DNA from: a virus
Taxonomy: Duplodnaviria > Heunggongvirae > Uroviricota > Caudoviricetes
Length of the DNA stretch: 36,325 nt
Virus record (IMG/VR): IMGVR_UViG_2711768053_000014
Coordinates: 1 to 36,325 of that record
Direction: 5' to 3' (one strand)
Shown here: piece by piece, positions 1-36,325 of the stretch
How positions within the stretch are numbered: the stretch's first letter is position 1
Layout of the letters: each line of letters starts with the position of its first letter
The notes under the pieces: generated by a model
Database searches by the model: none
Seen by the model: the letters and a program-made list of their open reading frames with translations, nothing else
What the model was told of the DNA's origin: nothing
Translations under genes and position numbers: made by a program

Positions 1-707
1 ACTCTGAATAGCTTGGTGTTTAGGCGCTTTTTTGCGCGCTTATTCAGGAATCTGATGTAGCGATACTGATTAAATTTGTGTACCACGGCCCGCTCCTTAT
101 TAGCCCGTAAATACTCGCCTCGTTGTCCTCCGCGCTTAATCGCGTTCATCGTTATCTCGTGATACCACTCGCCGTCCAGTTCGTAGAACTTGCTTTCGTG
201 GCTGCCTATAAAATCAAAATTCGACGCCTGATATACCACGCCAGCACGTCCGCAGCGTTCGTCTGCAAAGGACTGAACCCACTCCACTGACGGGTACAGT
301 AACCTGATGGTTTTCAGCGCGTAGCTGATGGCCCGTGATTCAGAGTTGCGGGGCATGTCGTCGTGTAGCCACATGCGGTTCAGTTCCATATAGCCCCGGT
401 TATCCGTTTCAAGCACGACCCGACGCCCTGAGTTGGGGTTAAGGGCATATCCCCACTGAAGAACGCCAACCAGATCACGTCCGCTGAATACGCCCAGATG
501 CAGGTAGGAGTTATTCACAAAACGGCGGGAATAGTGCTTTGTCTGAATGATTGTGCGGGCCAGCCAGCAGGATATGGTTTCAACGCGCAGCTCCTTTGAA
601 CCATAGCCGACAATCCGGTCTTCATACTCAATAACGCAGGGTTTTGTCAGAATGCGTGATTTCTTCTCTTTTCCCACAATACAGCTCCGTGGGATGCTCT
701 TTGGCAT
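1..707 (-). CDS. mom: DNA modification protein Mom (partial, C-terminus beyond window start)
   Basis: Open frame with no stop from the ATG at 707 to the window edge (not in ORF track because no stop in window); translation ...[51 protein letters not shown]... reads as Mu Mom; overlaps the 3-prime end of com in another frame as in Mu. Exact start uncertain (ATG at 707 or a downstream alternative start). Confidence 0.8.
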
Positions 708-813
708 TCGATATGACAATGTAACGTTTACAGCGAGGGCATTTAATTTCTATATGCTTAAAACCTCCTTTAAACAGTAATTTATTGCAGTTTTTACAGC
801 GAACAGAGTCCAT
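628..813 (-). CDS. com: Com, zinc-finger translational activator of mom
   Basis: ORF track 628..840; CxxC...CxxC motif ([10 protein letters not shown]...IKCPRCKRY) and close resemblance to Mu Com; the second in-frame ATG (813) has an AGGGGGA Shine-Dalgarno and gives 61 aa, close to the ~62 aa I recall for Mu Com; sits directly upstream of and overlapping mom. Confidence 0.8.
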
Positions 814-840
814 GATTCCCCCTGTGTAATAATCAGACAT

Positions 841-936
841 GAGCGCCCGGAGGGCTGGGGGTATTTAATCACAACCGATGCAAACCGACGATCGATATGA
901 TGCTATCGATCGTCATAAACTATACAAACTGATTAT
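841..936 (-). promoter_or_regulatory. Candidate mom-operon promoter/regulatory region with Dam-site inverted repeat
   Basis: Intergenic between the chaperone stop (937) and com; perfect 11-bp inverted repeat GACGATCGATA-(6 nt)-TATCGATCGTC at ~887..914 holding two GATC sites. Mu's mom promoter is regulated through upstream GATC methylation (established knowledge); assignment here is by position and motif only. Confidence 0.5.
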
Positions 937-1512
937 TTAATCACCGACAGTTAACGCTCTCACCTCGTCCAGTATGGACAGCCGGGAAAGCTGCTCCTTC
1001 ATTTCACGCTGGCGCTGATAAATCCCGTCATTGCGATCGAGCTGCGCCTGCGCCATTGCTACCGCCAGTTCTTCCAGTTCCGACATTGACAGTTTCACCT
1101 GTTGATTATTGGCGTCACCCCACGCAAGGGCGGTTCTTGCCGTATCGGATTTCGCCGCCATTACTACCGGATAAAGACGGGCCAGTGAGTCGGGGCCAGC
1201 ATTCCAGGGGCGGCCGTTCCATTCGAACGTGAACGGCTGCGCCTCCTGTTCTGTGCGCCACGCCTCGATTTCCATCTTTTTGGCATCTTTTGCCGCTGCG
1301 ATAAGTTCAGGCGTGACTGTAAACGGGGCGATTTCACCCCATTTGCCGCTCTGTAACTCTTCCCAGATGCGCTGGCCTGTCATTGCGGTATCATCCTGCA
1401 TGGCGGTATACGGGACGAATTCCGTTTCACCTTCAAATAACACCTCGCAGTCAACCGCACCATTTTCGAGATAATGGGCATTTCTGATGCCTTTTATCGC
1501 TCTGATTTTCAT
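937..1512 (-). CDS. Putative tail fibre assembly/chaperone protein (by position downstream of fibre gene)
   Basis: 191-aa ORF immediately downstream of the 1035-aa fibre gene; no recognisable similarity to lambda Tfa from memory, so the call rests on synteny. Confidence 0.4.
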   Translation of the reverse strand: MKIRAIKGIRNAHYLENGAVDCEVLFEGETEFVPYTAMQDDTAMTGQRIWEELQSGKWGEIAPFTVTPELIAAAKDAKKMEIEAWRTEQEAQPFTFEWNGRPWNAGPDSLARLYPVVMAAKSDTARTALAWGDANNQQVKLSMSELEELAVAMAQAQLDRNDGIYQRQREMKEQLSRLSILDEVRALTVGD

Positions 1513-1526
1513 GTCTTATTTCCCCG

Positions 1527-4500
1527 TTACTCGATACGCACAAAAAGACCAATATAGCCACGTTTTGTATCGTGATTACTGCGTGACCCCGAAAGCGCCA
1601 TATAACGACCGGGAAAGTTGTATGCACTGGCACCACCAATTGCCACTTGCGGTGTGGATACGTATGTCCCTGTATCGCTAACTGAAGCACTCATAGCCAG
1701 AGGGCCAAGACGGGAACCCGGCACAATATCACCGAGTCCCAGAGACACATCAGCACCAAAACTTTCCCCCTGATATGCCGCCATAACCGGCACACCAACT
1801 GCCGGATATTTGTAATATGAGCCTGAGCCTGCTGTCCGGGAGAGTAAGAACGCCAGCGAATCGCCGTCGTAAATGACAGGGCTTACTGTTGCATTCCAGT
1901 TGTTTCCACTCCAGCGGTAAGTCAGGCGATGAATGCTGTGTTCGCCTTCGTAATACTGGTTAAAACACAGCAACGTTTTGAATTTACGCGTTGTGTCCGA
2001 TTCATCGTTATCAAAGGGCGACCACATCACATCAATGATGCCGTTAAATTTCGTGGTGCCAGCCAGCAGCGTGGAAGAGTCCGCAATACTGACCGCATAA
2101 CGCCCCGGGGTGGCCTCTTTCAGCCATTCAGCAAAATCAGCCTGTCCGGTAAATGTCAGGGCGTCGGTGCTGGCAAATGCCTGACCGAATCCGTACATGC
2201 CGGACAGTGCCAGTCTGCCCGGCGTGCGGTCGCGGATATCGCTCTGGGGTTCCATCGTAGCAGCCGCTTTCAGTTCAAGCTCCGTGCGCATGGCTTCAGG
2301 TGTGTCCAGTGCCAGTAATGCGCGGGCTTTTTCTGACAACTGCGCCAGTAAAATCCTGCCATCTGCACTGAAATAAGGCAGTGTATTTTCTTCCGGTGTT
2401 ATCTGGCTGACAGCCGTTAACACGTCATTAAGCGGCTGTTTACCTGCCAGTGCATTAGTGACGGTTGTCGCAAAGTTCGGGTCATTGCCCAGTGCCGATG
2501 CCAGCTCGTTCAGTGTGTCCAGGGCTTCCGGTGATGAGCCAACCAGCGCGGCAAGCAGTTTGCGGACAAACTCCGCATTGGCTATTTCATTACCTGCTGC
2601 ATCATCCGGTGGTGTTGGCGTGGACGGCGTTCCGGTCAGTGCCGGGCTGTTCAGTGGCGCGCGGGTTTCAATCAGTGCCCGGAGTGAAGCCTCGTTGACT
2701 TTCAGGTTTTCCCAGCCAACCAGATAACCATCTCCGGTAGTCCAGTAGCGATTGTAATAAATATGGCCGTTAATACCGTAAAAAATAATGATTTTGGCCA
2801 CATATGCCGGATTGGGATTGGGTTGAGATTCCGGCCAGATAATTTCAACGGTACCCTTGAACAGCACGCCCTGTATTACCGCATTTGTATCTGCATAAAC
2901 GGCATAGCGTCCGGGTTTTGCCGTTTTTACCCAGCGGAGAAAATCGGCCTCTGTTTTAAACTCGGTCCTGTCGCCGCTGGAAAATACTTTCCCGAATCCA
3001 AACATGCCGGGAATCGCCAGTCGACCTTCGGTGCGGTCGTAAATATTCTCCTGTGCATCCTTCTGTGCTGCATTGCCAAGTTGTAGCGTCAGATTCGTCC
3101 AGGTGACCGGGGCGGAGATATTATCGCCACGAACGGTCATGAGAATCCGTCCGTCTTTTCCAAAAAACAGAACCAGCTTTGTTGCTGTCTGGCTTGTTTT
3201 GTCGCCCCAGCCATTATCCAGCCAGATAATTTCTGTTATTCCGGTCGTCTCTTCCGTTTGTGTGGAAAAGGTGTAATACCGTCCCGGGTGCAGGTTGTGC
3301 GCAGTTCTGGCTACAGTCGCCATATCGCTGGCAATAATTGAACGCGCTCCGGCGTCCGTCATTCCGTAACCAAATGCACCAGGCAGCGCAACACGGCCTT
3401 CCGAGCTGTCGTAAAGGTCTGTCTGAATGTCCCTTACCGCTGCGCTTTTCAGCTCAAGCTCATTGCGCATGGTTTCCACTGTGGCCTGTGCCAGCAGTGA
3501 CCGGGCTTTTTCTGACAGTGGAGACAGTGAAGCATTTCCGTCCTGATTAAAGCACAGAAGATTATCTGCCCGTTCTTCCAGATTACTGATTGCGGTTAAC
3601 ACGTCACTGAGTGGTTGTTTACCCGCCAGCGCGTTAATGACCGTCGTCGAAAAGTTCGGATCATTGCCCAGCGCAGCTGCCAGCTCGTTCAGTGTGTCCA
3701 GGGTTTCCGGTGACGAGTCAACCAGTGCGGCGAGCAGTTTGCGGACAAATGCCGCGTTCGCTGTTTCCAGACCGGCAGCATCGTCCGGTGGAGTTGGTGT
3801 GGTGGGCGTACCTGTGAACGCCGGACTGTCCAGCGGCGCTTTTGTTTTCGTCTCGTCCATGACGGTTTTAACAGCCTTTGGTGTGGCTGCCAGTTCTTCG
3901 CTGTCGTTGTCTGTATCACTACAGAGTTGCACCAGGCCTTTTTCTGTTGTGGATGCATTGCTTCCCTTCAGGTCATCAACTATCCGTTGCGCCTCGTCCC
4001 TGTGCTGTTTCGCGTTCTGTTCGCTTTTTGCTGCCGCTTCGGCGCTGGCTTTTGCCTCGCCGGTCAGCGTTGCGGCATCAGCAAGTTTATCGACCGCTTT
4101 CTGGACTATCTTATCGGCATCTTTGACCGCCTGTTCTGCCCGGGCGGCATTCTGGTTTGTTTCAGAGGCCAGCTCTTCAGCTTTCTGCACATTACCCGCA
4201 ATTTCTTCTGCATCCTGCCGTATTTCCCCTGCGAGGGTTTCTGTATCCTGGCGGGCCTGTTCAGCAGCGTCCGCGTGCTCTCCGGCTTTTTCTGCGCTTT
4301 GCTGCGCCTGTTGCGCCAGTTCCTCGAATTTCTTCAGGGCTTCCGGGCGCAGGTCAATATCGGTTGCGCCCAGAAAATCATTCAGCGAACCATCCGCTGA
4401 ATCTTCATAAACGCGGATGACACCGATTTCTGAAAGGCGCTGTGTGCTTTGTGTCAGGCGAACGCTGTACACACCCGGCAGAACGGGGAAGTCATATTCC

Positions 4501-4634
4501 CCGTTCTGTGTGGTGACATGGCTGAAAACACTTTTCAGAATCCCTGCACGGTTGTGCAGGGAGGTCAGTGTAATGGTTGCGCCGCCCAGCGGTTCTCCCG
4601 TGGGCGTTTTAATCACACCTTTAAGCTGCGGCAT
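1527..4634 (-). CDS. Side-tail-fibre-like protein (lambda Stf family), 1035 aa, with internal duplication
   Basis: N-terminus (...IRVYEDSADGSLNDFL...) and the collar block (KGLVQLCSDTDNDSEELAATPKAVKTVMDETKTKAPLDSPAFTGTP...LDTLNELAAALGNDPNFSTTVINALAGKQP) resemble lambda Stf as I recall it; the collar block occurs twice in the protein (about aa 255-345 and 630-715). Confidence 0.8.
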   Translation of the reverse strand: MPQLKGVIKTPTGEPLGGATITLTSLHNRAGILKSVFSHVTTQNGEYDFPVLPGVYSVRLTQSTQRLSEIGVIRVYEDSADGSLNDFLGATDIDLRPEALKKFEELAQQAQQSAEKAGEHADAAEQARQDTETLAGEIRQDAEEIAGNVQKAEELASETNQNAARAEQAVKDADKIVQKAVDKLADAATLTGEAKASAEAAAKSEQNAKQHRDEAQRIVDDLKGSNASTTEKGLVQLCSDTDNDSEELAATPKAVKTVMDETKTKAPLDSPAFTGTPTTPTPPDDAAGLETANAAFVRKLLAALVDSSPETLDTLNELAAALGNDPNFSTTVINALAGKQPLSDVLTAISNLEERADNLLCFNQDGNASLSPLSEKARSLLAQATVETMRNELELKSAAVRDIQTDLYDSSEGRVALPGAFGYGMTDAGARSIIASDMATVARTAHNLHPGRYYTFSTQTEETTGITEIIWLDNGWGDKTSQTATKLVLFFGKDGRILMTVRGDNISAPVTWTNLTLQLGNAAQKDAQENIYDRTEGRLAIPGMFGFGKVFSSGDRTEFKTEADFLRWVKTAKPGRYAVYADTNAVIQGVLFKGTVEIIWPESQPNPNPAYVAKIIIFYGINGHIYYNRYWTTGDGYLVGWENLKVNEASLRALIETRAPLNSPALTGTPSTPTPPDDAAGNEIANAEFVRKLLAALVGSSPEALDTLNELASALGNDPNFATTVTNALAGKQPLNDVLTAVSQITPEENTLPYFSADGRILLAQLSEKARALLALDTPEAMRTELELKAAATMEPQSDIRDRTPGRLALSGMYGFGQAFASTDALTFTGQADFAEWLKEATPGRYAVSIADSSTLLAGTTKFNGIIDVMWSPFDNDESDTTRKFKTLLCFNQYYEGEHSIHRLTYRWSGNNWNATVSPVIYDGDSLAFLLSRTAGSGSYYKYPAVGVPVMAAYQGESFGADVSLGLGDIVPGSRLGPLAMSASVSDTGTYVSTPQVAIGGASAYNFPGRYMALSGSRSNHDTKRGYIGLFVRIE
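2400..2680. repeat. Intragenic direct repeat copy A (~270 bp) within the Stf-like gene
   Basis: About 85-90% identical by eye to 3585..3860; both encode the APL(D/N)SPA(F/L)TGTP...NELA(A/S)ALGNDPNF...ALAGKQP segment; the paired plus-strand artefact ORFs 2458..2727 and 3637..4410 start with near-identical peptides. Confidence 0.7.
3585..3860. repeat. Intragenic direct repeat copy B (~270 bp) within the Stf-like gene
   Basis: See copy A (2400..2680). Confidence 0.7.
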
Positions 4635-5187
4635 CGGGACGCTCCGGCCAGTTGATGGAGTAAAAGGAGGCTTCGTCAGTAACGGTGCTTAAATCCAGTG
4701 CCTTTACCGCTTTGATATATGCCATCCACTGCGTAAGACGGGCTTTATCATCGTCGCTGATGGTGCCCAGCTCCAGCTCGGTTTTCCAGTCGGAGGTGAT
4801 GTCCTTCGCTTCATTCAGCATGCTCTGGCGTTTTTTTTCTGCCAGTCGCGAGTAATCAACAGGAACCGGCAGCACTTCGCCGTCTTTGTAATACCAGCAG
4901 GCTTCAATGCCAAAACCTTCCGGCAGTTCATCCACTTCCACAATGGTGAAGCCAGCCGGATAAAGACGGGACACGTCTTCCGCCATTGAATAAATCACGC
5001 CGCTTTCAGGGTGAATACACAATTTGTATTTCTTCGTGAATTTATCCAGTGATTCATAAAAATCCTGTCCGTCTTCACTGCGGAAATACTGAATATCCTT
5101 ACCATAAGGCATATTTTCCGGGTAATAACGCGTGACGTTTCTGAGTTCCATTATTTTCTCCTTAATTAACCTGATACGGTGCGCCAT
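4621..5187 (-). CDS. Tail fibre assembly protein (Tfa / Mu U-like)
   Basis: 188-aa ORF directly after a fibre gene, with a Tfa-like C-terminal region (...DKARLTQWMAYIKAVKALDLSTV...WPERP); true start may be the internal Met at ~5151 just after the upstream stop. Confidence 0.7.
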   Translation of the reverse strand: MAHRIRLIKEKIMELRNVTRYYPENMPYGKDIQYFRSEDGQDFYESLDKFTKKYKLCIHPESGVIYSMAEDVSRLYPAGFTIVEVDELPEGFGIEACWYYKDGEVLPVPVDYSRLAEKKRQSMLNEAKDITSDWKTELELGTISDDDKARLTQWMAYIKAVKALDLSTVTDEASFYSINWPERPDAAA

Positions 5188-5975
5188 GAACCATTGATAT
5201 AAATCTGCGCGGATTTGTAATACACACCACCGATGTTATCCGCCGAACTTCTCCCCGTATCCTGGACATAAATTCCTGACAACTGACAGCCGGAAGGCGC
5301 GCGAAACGTCCAGGTGATTTCGTTGCCACCGGGATTGTGAAACACCTCATTGGTGTACTGAAAATTACGCACAGCGCCGGAATCTGTGGTGTTGATGGTG
5401 ATATCGCTGGTGCCATCAAACAGCACATTGTTAATCCTGCGGGCCGTCTGAAGCCGGGTTGCCGTTCCGGCGTTGCCACTGATGTTGCTGATGGTGATAT
5501 CCGAAGACAGGGCCATGCCGTTGACCCTGCGGGTATTCGGTACAGCACTATTAGCTTTATTTACCGTGTCACGTAATAAAAGCGCGTCGATAATTTCACC
5601 GGCTGTGTTTTTCCCGAGAATACCGCGCACAAAAGCACTGAGCGGCGTTAATGCCATTGTGTCTTCGCCGGTAAAGTACGGGAATGTATTATTCTGACCG
5701 GTTAATCCGGCAATAGCACTGGCTGAACCACTGTTCGTAATAAACAGTTTTTTCAGCGCCGTCATAATCTGGTTGGTGGTATTTTTATCCGGTTTGATAT
5801 TTGCCTGCCGGAGAATTTCCAGCAGTTCAGACTGAATAATATTAAACCAGTCCGGCCCCGGATAAGTGGGCGGAATACCATTCCCGCCTTCGGTGAAATA
5901 AAGCGTTGTTTTGCTTAATTCAGCCGCGACAGGTGGCATTACCGGCACACCCGTCGGATTATCCACATGAAACAT
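5166..5975 (-). CDS. Tail fibre protein (short, Mu S-like position)
   Basis: 269-aa ORF between the baseplate genes and a Tfa-type chaperone; Ser/Thr/Gly/Asn-rich fibre-like composition (...DITISNISGNAGTATRLQTARRINNVLFDGTSDITINTTDSG...). Confidence 0.6.
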   Translation of the reverse strand: MFHVDNPTGVPVMPPVAAELSKTTLYFTEGGNGIPPTYPGPDWFNIIQSELLEILRQANIKPDKNTTNQIMTALKKLFITNSGSASAIAGLTGQNNTFPYFTGEDTMALTPLSAFVRGILGKNTAGEIIDALLLRDTVNKANSAVPNTRRVNGMALSSDITISNISGNAGTATRLQTARRINNVLFDGTSDITINTTDSGAVRNFQYTNEVFHNPGGNEITWTFRAPSGCQLSGIYVQDTGRSSADNIGGVYYKSAQIYINGSWRTVSG

Positions 5976-9660: not shown

Positions 9661-10934
9661 CAGTCGGTAATCTCCACAGGTTGCGTTGGCAGTATGAATG
9701 ACGGATGGCGCAGGCGGTTACGCTGCACGATTTCATCCCGTCGGCTGGTGTCACCATGCTCGCGCCATGCCAGCAATGCGGCAGATGTGGTTGTGGTCAG
9801 CGTCACCTGCCGGGTTTCCGGCAGACGGGCGGCACGCTCGCGGGCATCCGTAATCACGGCCAGCCGTAAATCGCGCAGCGTTCGCCACAATGCCCGCTGG
9901 TTATTTTCCACCGCCGCCACCGCCTGTTCATGCAGTTCAGCCGCCAGCGTATCACCGGCAGATAATGCCGCATCACTGGTATCGAACGTCATCGAGGTCA
10001 CGGCATTTGCCTGTCCCAGCAGGGTTTCCAGCACAACCACCTGGCGGAAGTCGTCAATGTTCTTCTGCAGGCTGTCAGATACCGGCTGATAATCCGGTGA
10101 CAGCCCGATAGCAAAGCCTATTTCACCGTCTGCCACGCTGCCGGGCTTCACGGTGATATCTTCCGGCAGTGCGCCGGTGGCAACCTGTCGGGCACGTTCT
10201 CCGGCCCACTGGTTGCGTAATGTCGTGTAAACCGCCAGTGCTTCGGGTGGTTCCGTCACCAGATCAACCACGCCGTCGATGAACGAGGACAGCTCACTGA
10301 CCAGACGCCCCGGTGTGGCAATGATGGTTCCGGCCATCTCCTTAAAATGGTTCAGCCTGTCCATCCACTGATTCAGTGCTGCCGGTAACGTGGGCAGATT
10401 AGCCACAAGGTTCTCCATATCAGCCAGAAAGCTGTCGGCCATCTCACCCAGCCCGTCGAGTGCGCCGAACCAGTCGCCATCGTCAATGGCGGCTTTCACC
10501 GCATCAATGCCCGTCAGCACTTCCTGCTGCGTGTTATCCGCCGCAGACGGGAACAGGCGCTCGCCTGCCTCAAACACTTCAAAAGTGACATACGCAATGC
10601 CGTCTTCCTCCGTGCTGAGGCGATGGGTGACCTTGCCAACCTGTACGGTCTGTATCCCGAACCACGGGTGGATAAGCTCGCCGGGGCCGGGGGTATTGAG
10701 CGCGTCTAAAAGGGCGTTTAAATCATCCCGGAAGTTTTTACCTGGCAGCTTTGCGTTAATCTGCTGTTGCCCCGGAACAGCACCGTTATCATCCGTCCAG
10801 GCGGTTTCGCGCCGGGGATACGCGCGGGGAATCGCTCTGCGGCCACCGGTGCCTTCCGTATCCACCAGAAAGAAGGGAACACCACGAAACGAGGCGTCGC
10901 GCAGCCCGTTCCATTTACCTTTGCCTGTTGTCAT
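9660..10934 (-). CDS. DNA circularisation protein N-like (Mu gp43-like)
   Basis: 424-aa ORF directly after the tape-measure gene; Mu N-like by synteny. Confidence 0.65.
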   Translation of the reverse strand: MTTGKGKWNGLRDASFRGVPFFLVDTEGTGGRRAIPRAYPRRETAWTDDNGAVPGQQQINAKLPGKNFRDDLNALLDALNTPGPGELIHPWFGIQTVQVGKVTHRLSTEEDGIAYVTFEVFEAGERLFPSAADNTQQEVLTGIDAVKAAIDDGDWFGALDGLGEMADSFLADMENLVANLPTLPAALNQWMDRLNHFKEMAGTIIATPGRLVSELSSFIDGVVDLVTEPPEALAVYTTLRNQWAGERARQVATGALPEDITVKPGSVADGEIGFAIGLSPDYQPVSDSLQKNIDDFRQVVVLETLLGQANAVTSMTFDTSDAALSAGDTLAAELHEQAVAAVENNQRALWRTLRDLRLAVITDARERAARLPETRQVTLTTTTSAALLAWREHGDTSRRDEIVQRNRLRHPSFILPTQPVEITD

Positions 10935-12793: not shown

Positions 12794-12879
12794 GTTGTTT
12801 CTCCAGTTGCTTTATCAGGCGGAACAGCTGCCGCAGGGGCAGCTGTTCCAGGTACTGAATGCTGAATCGCTGGGACAGG

Positions 12880-19202: not shown

Positions 19203-19232
19203 CAGAAAAAAAGCCGGATTTACCGGCTTCAC
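19203..19232 (-). terminator. Rho-independent terminator-like hairpin (minus strand) between F and I
   Basis: Plus strand AAAAAAAGCCGGATTTACCGGCTTCA; on the minus-strand transcript this is a GC stem (AAGCCGG/CCGGCUU) with loop UAAAU followed by U7. Coordinates ±2. Confidence 0.6.
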
Positions 19233-26940: not shown

Positions 26941-26968
26941 AAAAAAAGCCGGATTTACCGGCTTCATT
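26941..26968 (-). terminator. Rho-independent terminator-like hairpin (minus strand) after the mor operon
   Basis: Plus strand AAAAAAAGCCGGATTTACCGGCTTCA, identical to the element at ~19205..19230; on the minus strand a stem-loop followed by U7, about 20 nt past the stop of the 26987..27484 ORF. Confidence 0.6.
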
Positions 26969-26986: not shown

Positions 26987-27484
26987 TCAGTTAACTTTAC
27001 GGGCAGAACATGTAGTCTTCATTACTGAACGTTCAATTTTTATCTTCCAGCCATTTACTGTTTTTTCGACAGGATCATCTTCAGCTTGCTTTAAATTTTC
27101 AACTTGCATGAAATTCAGTGGGGCTGGGGTATCATCGTCCCATGATGTCGGACGAACATAATCAGGGACAACAAAAGGCTCAAAAACAGTTTCACATAAA
27201 GCAGACGTCATTTGAGCAAACTCGTCGCTATCGGGGCGAACCGGTCCTGTAACATACTGCATTTTTATGTTGATTTCGTTATCTCGCACAGACGCCTTTA
27301 AATCCTGATATACACCTAAGTTAAATCCTTTAAACTCAGCAATGGCAGCGTCACCTTTACCGTACCAGTCGGTATAGTCAACGGATGTTTTTTTCTGAAA
27401 AACATCTTTGACTTTTTGCTGGAATGTATCCGCCGCTTGTACAGTAGTAACAGTTAGTAGAAGAATAAGGGGAAGATATTTCAT
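26987..27484 (-). CDS. Secreted (signal-peptide) protein of unknown function in the position of Mu late activator C
   Basis: 165-aa ORF; N-terminus MKYLPLILLLTVTTVQA|AD is a classical Sec signal peptide with an AxA site; start overlaps the mor stop (translational coupling); followed by a terminator hairpin; no similarity to the Mor/C family. Confidence 0.6.
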   Translation of the reverse strand: MKYLPLILLLTVTTVQAADTFQQKVKDVFQKKTSVDYTDWYGKGDAAIAEFKGFNLGVYQDLKASVRDNEINIKMQYVTGPVRPDSDEFAQMTSALCETVFEPFVVPDYVRPTSWDDDTPAPLNFMQVENLKQAEDDPVEKTVNGWKIKIERSVMKTTCSARKVN

Positions 27485-27882
27485 TGTTCGTCCTTAAATA
27501 GTTGCATTTGATATTTTCCACGCTCCAGTCGGCGCATTCTTTTGATGGCCTGATATACCGTTTTGTATGTCACTTTGTAACGCTGCACCAGCTCCGCTAC
27601 GTTTTTCCCATCAAAATCACGCCAGATGCGCATGTCTCTGATAAGATTTTCCAGTATTTTCCCTTTCGGAACATATACCTGAATCCCACCGATATGATTG
27701 CAAATCGCCACTACCAGCTCAAGAGAGTGGGCAGGGTTAACTCCAAGCCTTATCAGCTCCTGTCGCAACAGAGCATTCAGCTCAGCCAGTAAAGATGGAA
27801 ATCCCGATTTTTCCTGAATATCATCAAAATATTCAAGGATACTGTCGTCCTGATAATCACCAAATAAATCCTGCTCTTTCAT
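27481..27882 (-). CDS. mor: Mor/C-family transcriptional activator (middle operon regulator-like)
   Basis: 133-aa ORF; ...DLFGDYQDD...FPSLLAELNALLRQELIRLGVNPAHSLELVVAICNHIGGIQVYVP...VTYKTVYQAIKRMRR resembles Mu Mor as I recall it; located right after gemA as in Mu. Confidence 0.8.
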   Translation of the reverse strand: MKEQDLFGDYQDDSILEYFDDIQEKSGFPSLLAELNALLRQELIRLGVNPAHSLELVVAICNHIGGIQVYVPKGKILENLIRDMRIWRDFDGKNVAELVQRYKVTYKTVYQAIKRMRRLERGKYQMQLFKDEQ

Positions 27883-34460: not shown

Positions 34461-34640
34461 CTTTCACACATCAACCATATTGCGTATGATAAAGGGTTAT
34501 CAAAACAGATAATCTGTCTTGATTATCTGTTTTATACATTGTCACATAAACCAAATAAACTCAACCAGTTTATATGAGTTGATGTGATTTATTTTGTAAC
34601 ACTTTGATTTATATACATATAATTTTGGTAAACTTAGTTT
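34461..34640. promoter_or_regulatory. Divergent early/repressor promoter-operator region (candidate Pe/Pc, operators, transposition enhancer)
   Basis: AT-rich 180-bp gap between divergent ner and c; palindrome AAACAGATAATC-(6 nt)-GATTATCTGTTT at ~34503..34532; about 0.95 kb from the left end, where Mu has its operator/enhancer. Confidence 0.55.
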
Positions 34641-35299: not shown

Positions 35300-35490
35300 T
35301 GATGTGTGAATTAATCGCTTTTCGTATCTTTAATGAAACAAAAGCCATTTCTACCAATCTTTCGCGTTTCAAGGCTTAACGGCTAAAATCTGCTCTACAG
35401 GCTTGCAAGCCCCATCAAATCTAATCCCGTCAAATCCCGAATAATCCAATGTCCTCCCGGTTTTTTTCGTACTTCTTGTGAATCAATACA
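35300..35490 (-). repeat. Mu left-end terminal region with transposase binding sites (L1 and L2/L3-like)
   Basis: Minus-strand terminus TGTATTGATTCACAAGAAGTACGAAAA (L1) at ~35464..35490; internal sites TGTTTCATTAAAGATACGAAAAG (~35321..35345) and TGAAACGCGAAAG (~35363..35377) fit the MuA site pattern TTTCA...CGAAA; host DNA starts at ~35491 (gcagg...). Confidence 0.85.
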
Positions 35491-35578
35491 GCAGGCATTC
35501 GTTGATGGGATTAAAGAAACGCCTTAAATAAGAAGCAGTGATATACTCCCACCAGACTCCCCGGCAGGAAAAAGACAA

Positions 35579-36325
35579 ATGGAACAAGCGCATACCCAGC
35601 TGATTGCCCAACTGAACGAGCGTATTTTAGCGGCGGATAACACGCCGCTTTATATTAAGTTTGCCGAAACGGTAAAAAATGCCGTGCGCAGCGGGGTGCT
35701 GGAGCATGGCAATATTTTGCCCGGTGAGCGTGATTTAAGTCAGTTAACCGGCGTTTCGCGCATTACGGTGCGCAAGGCGATGCAGGCGCTGGAAGAAGAG
35801 GGTGTGGTGACGCGTTCGCGCGGTTACGGCACGCAGATCAACAACATCTTCGAATACTCGTTGAAAGAAGCGCGAGGTTTTTCTCAGCAGGTGGTATTGC
35901 GCGGGAAAAAGCCCGATACGCTATGGGTTAACAAGCGTGTCGTGAAATGTCCCGAAGAAGTCGCGCAGCAGCTGGCGGTCGAAGCAGGAAGTGATGTCTT
36001 TTTGCTTAAGCGTATTCGCTATGTCGATGAAGAAGCGGTATCGATTGAGGAATCGTGGGTTCCGGCGCATTTAATTCATGATGTTGATGCCATCGGGATT
36101 TCACTTTATGACTATTTCCGCAGCCAGCACATTTACCCACAACGTACGCGTTCCCGCGTTAGCGCCCGGATGCCGGATGCCGAGTTTCAGTCACATATTC
36201 AGTTAGATAGCAAAATACCGGTGCTGGTGATCAAGCAAGTGGCGCTTGACCAACAGCAACGGCCTATTGAGTACAGCATTAGCCACTGTCGCAGCGATCT
36301 ATACGTTTTTGTGTGCGAGGAGTAG
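35579..36325 (+). CDS. yegW: GntR/HutC-family transcriptional regulator (host gene), yegW-like
   Basis: 248-aa ORF with an N-terminal GntR-type HTH (...ERDLSQLTGVSRITVRKAMQALEEEGVV...) and a C-terminal effector-binding domain; outside the prophage end; symbol from memory of E. coli YegW (248 aa), not verified. Confidence 0.6.
   Translation: MEQAHTQLIAQLNERILAADNTPLYIKFAETVKNAVRSGVLEHGNILPGERDLSQLTGVSRITVRKAMQALEEEGVVTRSRGYGTQINNIFEYSLKEARGFSQQVVLRGKKPDTLWVNKRVVKCPEEVAQQLAVEAGSDVFLLKRIRYVDEEAVSIEESWVPAHLIHDVDAIGISLYDYFRSQHIYPQRTRSRVSARMPDAEFQSHIQLDSKIPVLVIKQVALDQQQRPIEYSISHCRSDLYVFVCEE

Follow-up and report, generated by a model that had tools for sequence, protein, structure and literature searches.

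The com-mom anti-restriction operon of a Mu-like Escherichia coli prophage and its predicted layers of control

The stretch of DNA analysed here, 36,325 nucleotides in length and referred to as the window, begins with what is by its sequence the com-mom anti-restriction operon, located at the right end of a Mu-like prophage of E. coli. Expression of the operon is very likely governed by three layers: a translational layer composed of the Com protein and a translation-inhibition structure (TIS) in the mRNA, a transcriptional layer composed of OxyR and Dam, and a layer of activation. The genes and their function are textbook material, and it is nothing unusual to meet them in a Mu-like prophage of E. 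coli; sister prophages already carry the RefSeq annotations 'protein mom' and 'Com family'.

In Mu, Mor switches on C, and C switches on the late genes and mom. On a tentative reading, the prophage in the window may represent a lineage without C that has kept the Dam/OxyR palindrome and Com and has exchanged the promoter core (TGRTTAAATAYCCCC followed by GCCC-N3-GGGC), mom being turned on through a non-canonical Mor site or without an activator. If this is true, the exchanged promoter core constitutes a natural rewiring of one layer in a classic three-layer circuit.

The com and mom genes and their prophage

The window covers almost the entire prophage, in which A, B, gam, gemA, mor and the lysis, head and tail genes are followed by com-mom. 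A Mu-type left end (attL) is found at 35490, positions 35466-35490 reading TGTATTGATTCACAAGAAGTACGAA on the minus strand with two mismatches to Mu. The adjoining flank (35491-36325) matches the yegW (GntR/UTRA regulator) region of E. coli at 100% identity, which identifies E. coli as the host and places the insertion beside yegW. A complete sister prophage is inserted in flhA of E. coli ETEC1732. As in Mu, the operon sits at the right end next to attR, and it shares its gene order and the com/mom overlap with Mu, D108 and SfMu. The upstream neighbour is different. In place of the gin gene of Mu, a DUF4376 tail-fibre protein/chaperone gene (937..1512, minus strand) lies directly upstream of com, with a terminator-free gap in between, and neither a gin invertase nor a G segment was found in the window. 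Within 937-5187, a Caudo_TAP chaperone gene (4621..5187) and the DUF4376 gene flank the gene of a 1035-aa tail fibre that has a 'prophage tail fibre N-terminal' domain. In relatives, three or more different fibre sets precede the same com-mom cassette.

Mom, an enzyme with the GNAT fold, takes glycine from Gly-tRNA(Gly) and attaches it to the N6 position of adenine in duplex DNA, the product being carbamoylmethyl-adenine. The protein encoded in the window is predicted to modify phage DNA late in infection, which would blunt host restriction. It matches Pfam family PF25680 (E=3.3e-74; 249 bits against a cut-off of 27.1) and PHROG 1384 (E=7e-80), and it is 97% identical to Mu Mom over 225 residues. 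The residues H58, Y59, R111, S124, D149 and R151, described as essential or important for Mom catalysis (PMC13219725), all fall inside segments that are identical to Mu Mom. They are given in the 241-aa numbering, with an offset of +10 deduced from the description of the delta-10 construct (PMC13219725). Expression of mom is toxic (PMC3378877).

The com gene (628..813, minus strand) encodes a protein of 61 aa with a CxxC...CxxC zinc ribbon that contains CPRCKR. All four zinc-binding cysteines are present (C6, C9, C26 and C29). The protein scores 30.5 bits against Pfam PF10122 (Zn_ribbon_Com; cut-off 22.9) and E=4e-43 against PHROG 13819 (gpCom), and 73% of its residues are identical to those of Mu Com. 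The ATG at 813 is the aligned counterpart of the Mu com start and has a Shine-Dalgarno sequence, GGGGG (818..822, minus strand), that is kept in window-type relatives. A longer open reading frame starting at ATG 840 was rejected, since this ATG is not conserved and is missing from several relatives. At the nucleotide level, positions 1..803 are about 89% identical to com-mom of Mu, D108, SfMu and Mu-like Yersinia phages. A preliminary description of this DNA, made from the letters alone, had claimed that both genes are present and that com (628..813) overlaps mom in another frame as in Mu. The first claim is borne out by the Pfam and PHROG profiles and by the identity to Mu seen in the alignment that the description had proposed as a check, and the frames of the overlap are confirmed.

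The start of mom, which the same description placed at about 707, is a matter of two codons in one frame. The frame is indeed open from the ATG at 707..705 down to base 1, a run of 235 stop-free codons; this is the first in-frame ATG of mom and corresponds to residue 1 of the 241-aa numbering (PMC13219725). The Com model, however, has the mom GUG in the stem of the TIS (PMC6483171) and implies a start at 677..675, from which the coding sequence (1..677, minus strand) is open for 225 of 231 codons as far as the window edge. The annotated GUG start of Mu (GenBank AF083977) likewise comes ten codons after the counterpart of ATG 707. The 241-aa 'full-length' Mom is the form used in recent biochemistry, and the delta-10 form is fully active (PMC13219725). 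The module had also been called complete, which does not hold to the letter; mom is cut by the window start, as the description itself conceded. Judged from Mu and close relatives, 19 nt of mom lie outside the window (one nucleotide, five codons and the stop), and the residues affected are the last six, (V/I)QPYPK. In a sister prophage, a Mu-type right end (the Mu right end being ...CGTGCGCCGCTTCA) is reached about 115 bp after the mom stop.

Predicted translational control of mom by Com

A Com/TIS translation layer is strongly supported for the window by the predicted structure of the mRNA and its conservation. The mom Shine-Dalgarno sequence GGAG (688..685) and the GUG (677..675) would be locked in a hairpin with the sequence CCCACGG-AGCUGUA-UUGUGGG (673..693, minus strand), which represents the TIS. 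Com would bind the adjacent hairpin AUGC-CAAAGA-GCAU (694..707, minus strand) by way of the CC-N3-GAG motif in its 6-nt loop region, thereby freeing the mom start. Both hairpins are part of the minimum free energy (MFE) fold of the window RNA, which is exactly the two-hairpin model of Com site and TIS. The CC-AAA-GAG of the Com hairpin fits the CC(N)2-3GAG motif on which the published Com/TIS model is built (PMC6483171). A GUG inside the TIS and a Com hairpin with CC-N3-GAG are also found in Mu, D108 and SfMu. Among ten lineages the hairpin stems are invariant and the loops vary, with CC(N)2-3GAG kept throughout; a single A-to-G change occurs in the Com hairpin, at which a G.U pair is still possible. 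Since the stems are invariant, no RNA covariation signal was obtained for the two hairpins from the ten lineages, and the region is also coding.

The GATC palindrome and a probable Dam/OxyR layer

Upstream of com lies a 28-bp palindrome (887..914) in which two perfect 11-bp arms, GACGATCGATA (887-897) and TATCGATCGTC (904-914), enclose a 6-bp spacer (898-903). The arms are 100% complementary and each carries a GATC (890-893 and 908-911) within CGATCG, the recognition sequence of PvuI, in full agreement with the preliminary description, which had reported a perfect 11-bp repeat with two GATC sites here. Perfect inverted repeats of at least 11 nt with short spacers occur three times in 36 kb, all of them intergenic. 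The chance of finding one in the 123-bp spacer upstream of com is estimated at about 0.001, with the qualification that part of the symmetry is automatic owing to the self-complementary CGATCG in each arm. The Poisson probability of two GATC sites in a given 123-bp stretch is about 0.017. In the window as a whole, GATC is under-represented about 2.2-fold (58 sites against some 129 expected from dinucleotide-preserving shuffles). The repeat was also considered as an intrinsic terminator and rejected, as no U-tract follows it.

Alignment with the Mu promoter, also suggested in the preliminary description, identifies the two sites as homologues of Mu GATC1 and GATC2. TATAG, ACGATCGA and ATCGATCG match column for column, so that in both phages TATAG is followed by two GATC sites within CGATCG at the same spacing of 18 bp. 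In Mu Pmom the PvuI sites are 18 bp apart, an 18-bp PvuI fragment has been documented, and OxyR/Dam control is documented over the aligned GATC region (PMC3378877). There are differences as well. The third GATC of Mu, 13 bp after GATC2, reads CATC in the window (877..880, minus strand), by which the Dam target is lost. The same GATC-to-CATC change has been used experimentally for P22 gtr, where it abolishes methylation and leaves the OxyR consensus untouched (PMC2909390). The palindrome of the window, with its perfect 11 bp, is longer than that of Mu (about 7 bp), and 11 nt fewer than in Mu lie between the downstream box and the com ATG.

E. coli possesses both Dam and OxyR. The palindrome, together with the ATAG half-site that extends to 923, would correspond to the part of Mu Pmom to which OxyR binds. 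With both GATCs in the unmethylated or hemimethylated state OxyR would bind and repress, and after full Dam methylation it would be kept off. A candidate 37-bp OxyR site can be placed at 887..923 (minus strand) in the register ATAG-N7-CGAT-N7-ATCA-N7-CGTC, which is the best register in the window type and in cassettes L034, L050 and L009 alike. Its upstream half-site, ATAGTTTATGACGAT at 923..909, agrees with 8 of 10 consensus positions. Over the whole consensus (ATAGnTnnnAnCTAT, twice), the best score in the window is 12/20. The consensus is uninformative here, because 17% of shuffles reach this value and the proven site of Mu itself scores 13/20; the argument for OxyR and Dam therefore rests on homology. 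By homology with Mu, retention of a Dam/OxyR transcription layer with two methylatable sites instead of three is supported.

Regions upstream of mom were compared for 41 IMG/VR loci, three genome loci, Mu and four further E. coli prophages; a scan of genome contigs with Mom yielded three loci only. The two-GATC, C-less type of promoter is represented by 21 loci, counting the window. Across divergent cassettes the most conserved feature is a pair of GATC sites 18 or 13 bp apart. The 18-bp pair is shared by Mu, the window type, L009, L010, L050 and L051; most lineages have the third site at 13 bp, which the window type and L010 lack. Variation among the 18 distinct window-type sequences falls on the spacer and on positions nearby, the arms of the palindrome being invariant save for one outer base. 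L005, L007 and L034 still have the palindrome, moved inwards. The com-mom cassette is found behind three unrelated sets of tail-fibre genes, and in each case similarity begins just upstream of TGTATAG; thus the control region travels with com-mom. The spacing of sites differs among the more distant cassettes: L010, from a Scandinavium MAG, has two GATC sites 18 bp apart, L049 has a 13-bp pair with one further site upstream, and L009 and L051 combine the 18- and 13-bp spacings.

An arrangement of this kind is known from other promoters. In agn43 of E. coli and in the gtr operons of Salmonella and P22, GATC sites lie inside LysR-type ATAG-N7-CTAT half-sites, and methylation and OxyR binding are mutually exclusive (PMC2909390). 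These systems phase-vary a host or lysogenic-conversion gene, whereas here the target is a toxic phage gene of the lytic phase with two further layers of control. The GATC pairs of gtr are 13 bp apart, unlike the 18 bp seen here, and mom is not known to phase-vary (PMC2909390).

The palindrome might be recognized by a protein other than OxyR, either phage-encoded or another dimeric regulator of the host, with the GATCs being incidental to the CGATCG cores. The centre of the dyad (900/901) does not coincide with that of the best OxyR register, the match to the OxyR consensus falls short of significance, and the repeat is longer than in Mu and perfect. However, the aligned sites of Mu lie inside the documented OxyR/Dam region (PMC3378877 and references 12 and 13 therein), and GATC, although avoided genome-wide, is kept here in every lineage, which makes this explanation very unlikely. 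The natural variants show that the mom control region cannot do without the ATAG half-site and its two CGATCG sequences at 18-bp spacing, nor without the Com hairpin and the TIS, and that the promoter core, C site and third GATC of Mu can be replaced.

The promoter core and the source of activation

The only Mor/C-family gene of the prophage (27481..27882, minus strand) is 64% identical to Mu Mor and 30% to Mu C and is a Mor orthologue. A tblastn search of the whole window with Mu C returned this gene only, and hence no C. The complete ETEC1732 relative likewise gave no C by tblastn; it has one Mor gene in the same layout. Each of 16 IMG/VR loci has one Mor/C gene within the 3.5 kb fetched on either side of mor. 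A Mu-type Pmom and C are found together in seven of seven contigs long enough to check, and a window-type Pmom goes with a window-type Mor and undetected C in five of five contigs as well as in the window and ETEC1732. As this association comes from two lineages only, it is to be taken as a pattern and not as statistics. Between mor and the endolysin promoter there is a 165-aa open reading frame (26987-27484, minus strand) that has a signal-peptide-like N-terminus and matched nothing in Pfam or PHROG.

Two identical Mor-type sites were located on the minus strand, one serving as a site/promoter before the endolysin gene (AAGCCGGTAAATCCGGCTTTTT, 26943..26964) and the other before the head protease gene (19208..19229). 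They are nearly identical to the GCCGG-TAAAT-CCGGC dyad with T7 of Mu Pm and stand, as a difference from Mu Pm, directly at the late operons, before the lysis and head genes. Their position suggests that the late genes are run directly from Mor in a two-tier cascade (early, Mor, late) as opposed to the three tiers of Mu. Both sites also resemble terminator hairpins. The natural variants also show that a phage can retain a toxic late gene when its late cascade is short of one activator tier. The region upstream of com-mom has no such site: the best match to a canonical Mor site near com has 3 mismatches in 10, a level reached at several hundred places in the window. Another near-Mor site at 5697-5711 was dismissed; it has no T-tract, lies inside a tail gene and is probably a coding coincidence.

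The sequence between the palindrome and com differs from that of Mu. Neither the Mu C-binding dyad TTATGCCCCAATAA, nor the T6 tract, nor the TAAGAT -10 element is conserved in the alignment of the window with Mu. A C site (TTAT-N6-ATAA or a CATAACCCC box) 28 nt before the -10 was not found either, the window reading GTTGTGATTAAATACCCCC; only ATACCCCC in the window resembles a C box. The position of the Mu C-binding site is taken by a conserved box, TGTGATTAAATACCCCC (857..873, minus strand), which is not a dyad and whose TGRTTAAATA is the same in all 18 distinct window-type sequences. Next to it is a small conserved dyad, GCCC-TCC-GGGC (845..855, minus strand), that may act as a site in the DNA or, in the leader RNA, as a hairpin, followed by about 12 variable nucleotides and then TTATTACACAGGGGGAATC-ATG. 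At a Mu-like distance from the box there is a weak -10 candidate, GATTAT (829..834, minus strand), which is tentatively placed; most relatives have GGTTAT here, and in L028 the element is disrupted. The interval from the box to this candidate is 30 nt, as compared with 28 nt in all four C-dependent promoters of Mu. A scan of 814-936 detected no sigma-70-like promoter. This would be expected for a weak activator-dependent promoter and is equally compatible with read-through from upstream.

A CRP half-site (TGTGA) within the box was considered and rejected, as GTG is changed to ATG in L028, L047 and L048. A 13/14 match to the box, AATACCCCCgGCCC, occurs at about 10684-10697 (minus strand) inside an N-like gene, where it encodes LNTPGPG; the homologous motif of Mu N uses different codons. 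This copy could be a coincidence or an internal promoter like Mu PP, and it was set aside as evidence for the box because the motif it encodes is conserved. In L010, L049, L051 and L009 the GATC sites are followed by a CCATAACCC-type box, like that of the C-dependent late promoters of Mu.

The notion of Mu-style control put forward in the preliminary description therefore fares differently for each layer: it is upheld for Dam/OxyR by homology and for Com by sequence, and it does not extend to the activator, as there is no C and the promoter core differs. With C absent and its site replaced, transcription of com-mom would come from one of three sources, namely a Mor-type activator acting on a non-canonical box, a promoter free of any phage activator, or read-through from the tail-fibre genes. 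Favoured among these is a dedicated promoter, served by a Mor-type protein or another factor, to which some read-through may add.

In its strict form, the read-through explanation holds that com-mom is promoterless and forms the distal end of the late tail-fibre transcript, with the upstream elements acting as an OxyR roadblock or as an RNA hairpin for processing or stability. Transcription could indeed arrive from upstream, given that there is no minus-strand terminator in 937-813 and none that is convincing as far back as the Mor-type promoter at 19229, and that a co-directional tail-fibre gene precedes com in all three upstream contexts. The negative promoter scan and the ability of the repeat to fold as an 11-bp RNA hairpin are in line with it. 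This hairpin has no U-tract, however, and the repeat of Mu comprises only about 7 bp, yet the GATCs are kept, which points to a role at the level of DNA and not of RNA. Moreover, the box at 857-873 occupies the position of the Mu activator site, and an ATAACCC-type box in other lineages suggests a promoter. A wholly promoterless operon is thus fairly unlikely.

Alternatively, the core could be a promoter that needs no activator, for example with TGRTTAAAT as an extended -10-like element and a start near 856, gated only by OxyR/Dam and Com. All 18 distinct window-type sequences keep TG-N-TTAAAT unchanged between variable flanks, the phage has no C, and the GCCC-N3-GGGC dyad would become a hairpin at the very 5′ end of the mRNA; the palindrome would fall at about -58 to -31. 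Against this, TTAAAT does not have an A at position 2, where it is critical for a -10 hexamer, and the promoter scan was negative. With mom being toxic (PMC3378877), a constitutive promoter in a prophage would also hang wholly on OxyR and on the absence of Com. This possibility is distinctly unlikely, and a dedicated promoter with an activating factor is preferred to it. The C-less variants provide a simple test system for the share of mom silencing that is due to OxyR/Dam alone.

Two further inverted repeats of the prophage deserve mention. A perfect 13-bp repeat, AAAACAGATAATC / GATTATCTGTTTT with a 6-bp spacer (34502-34533), lies between the repressor gene and the ner/A side and, placed as it is in the early control region, is probably an operator. 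A perfect 12-bp repeat, GGAACAGCTGCC / GGCAGCTGTTCC (12821-12849), is located in an 86-bp gap upstream of a tape-measure-like gene.
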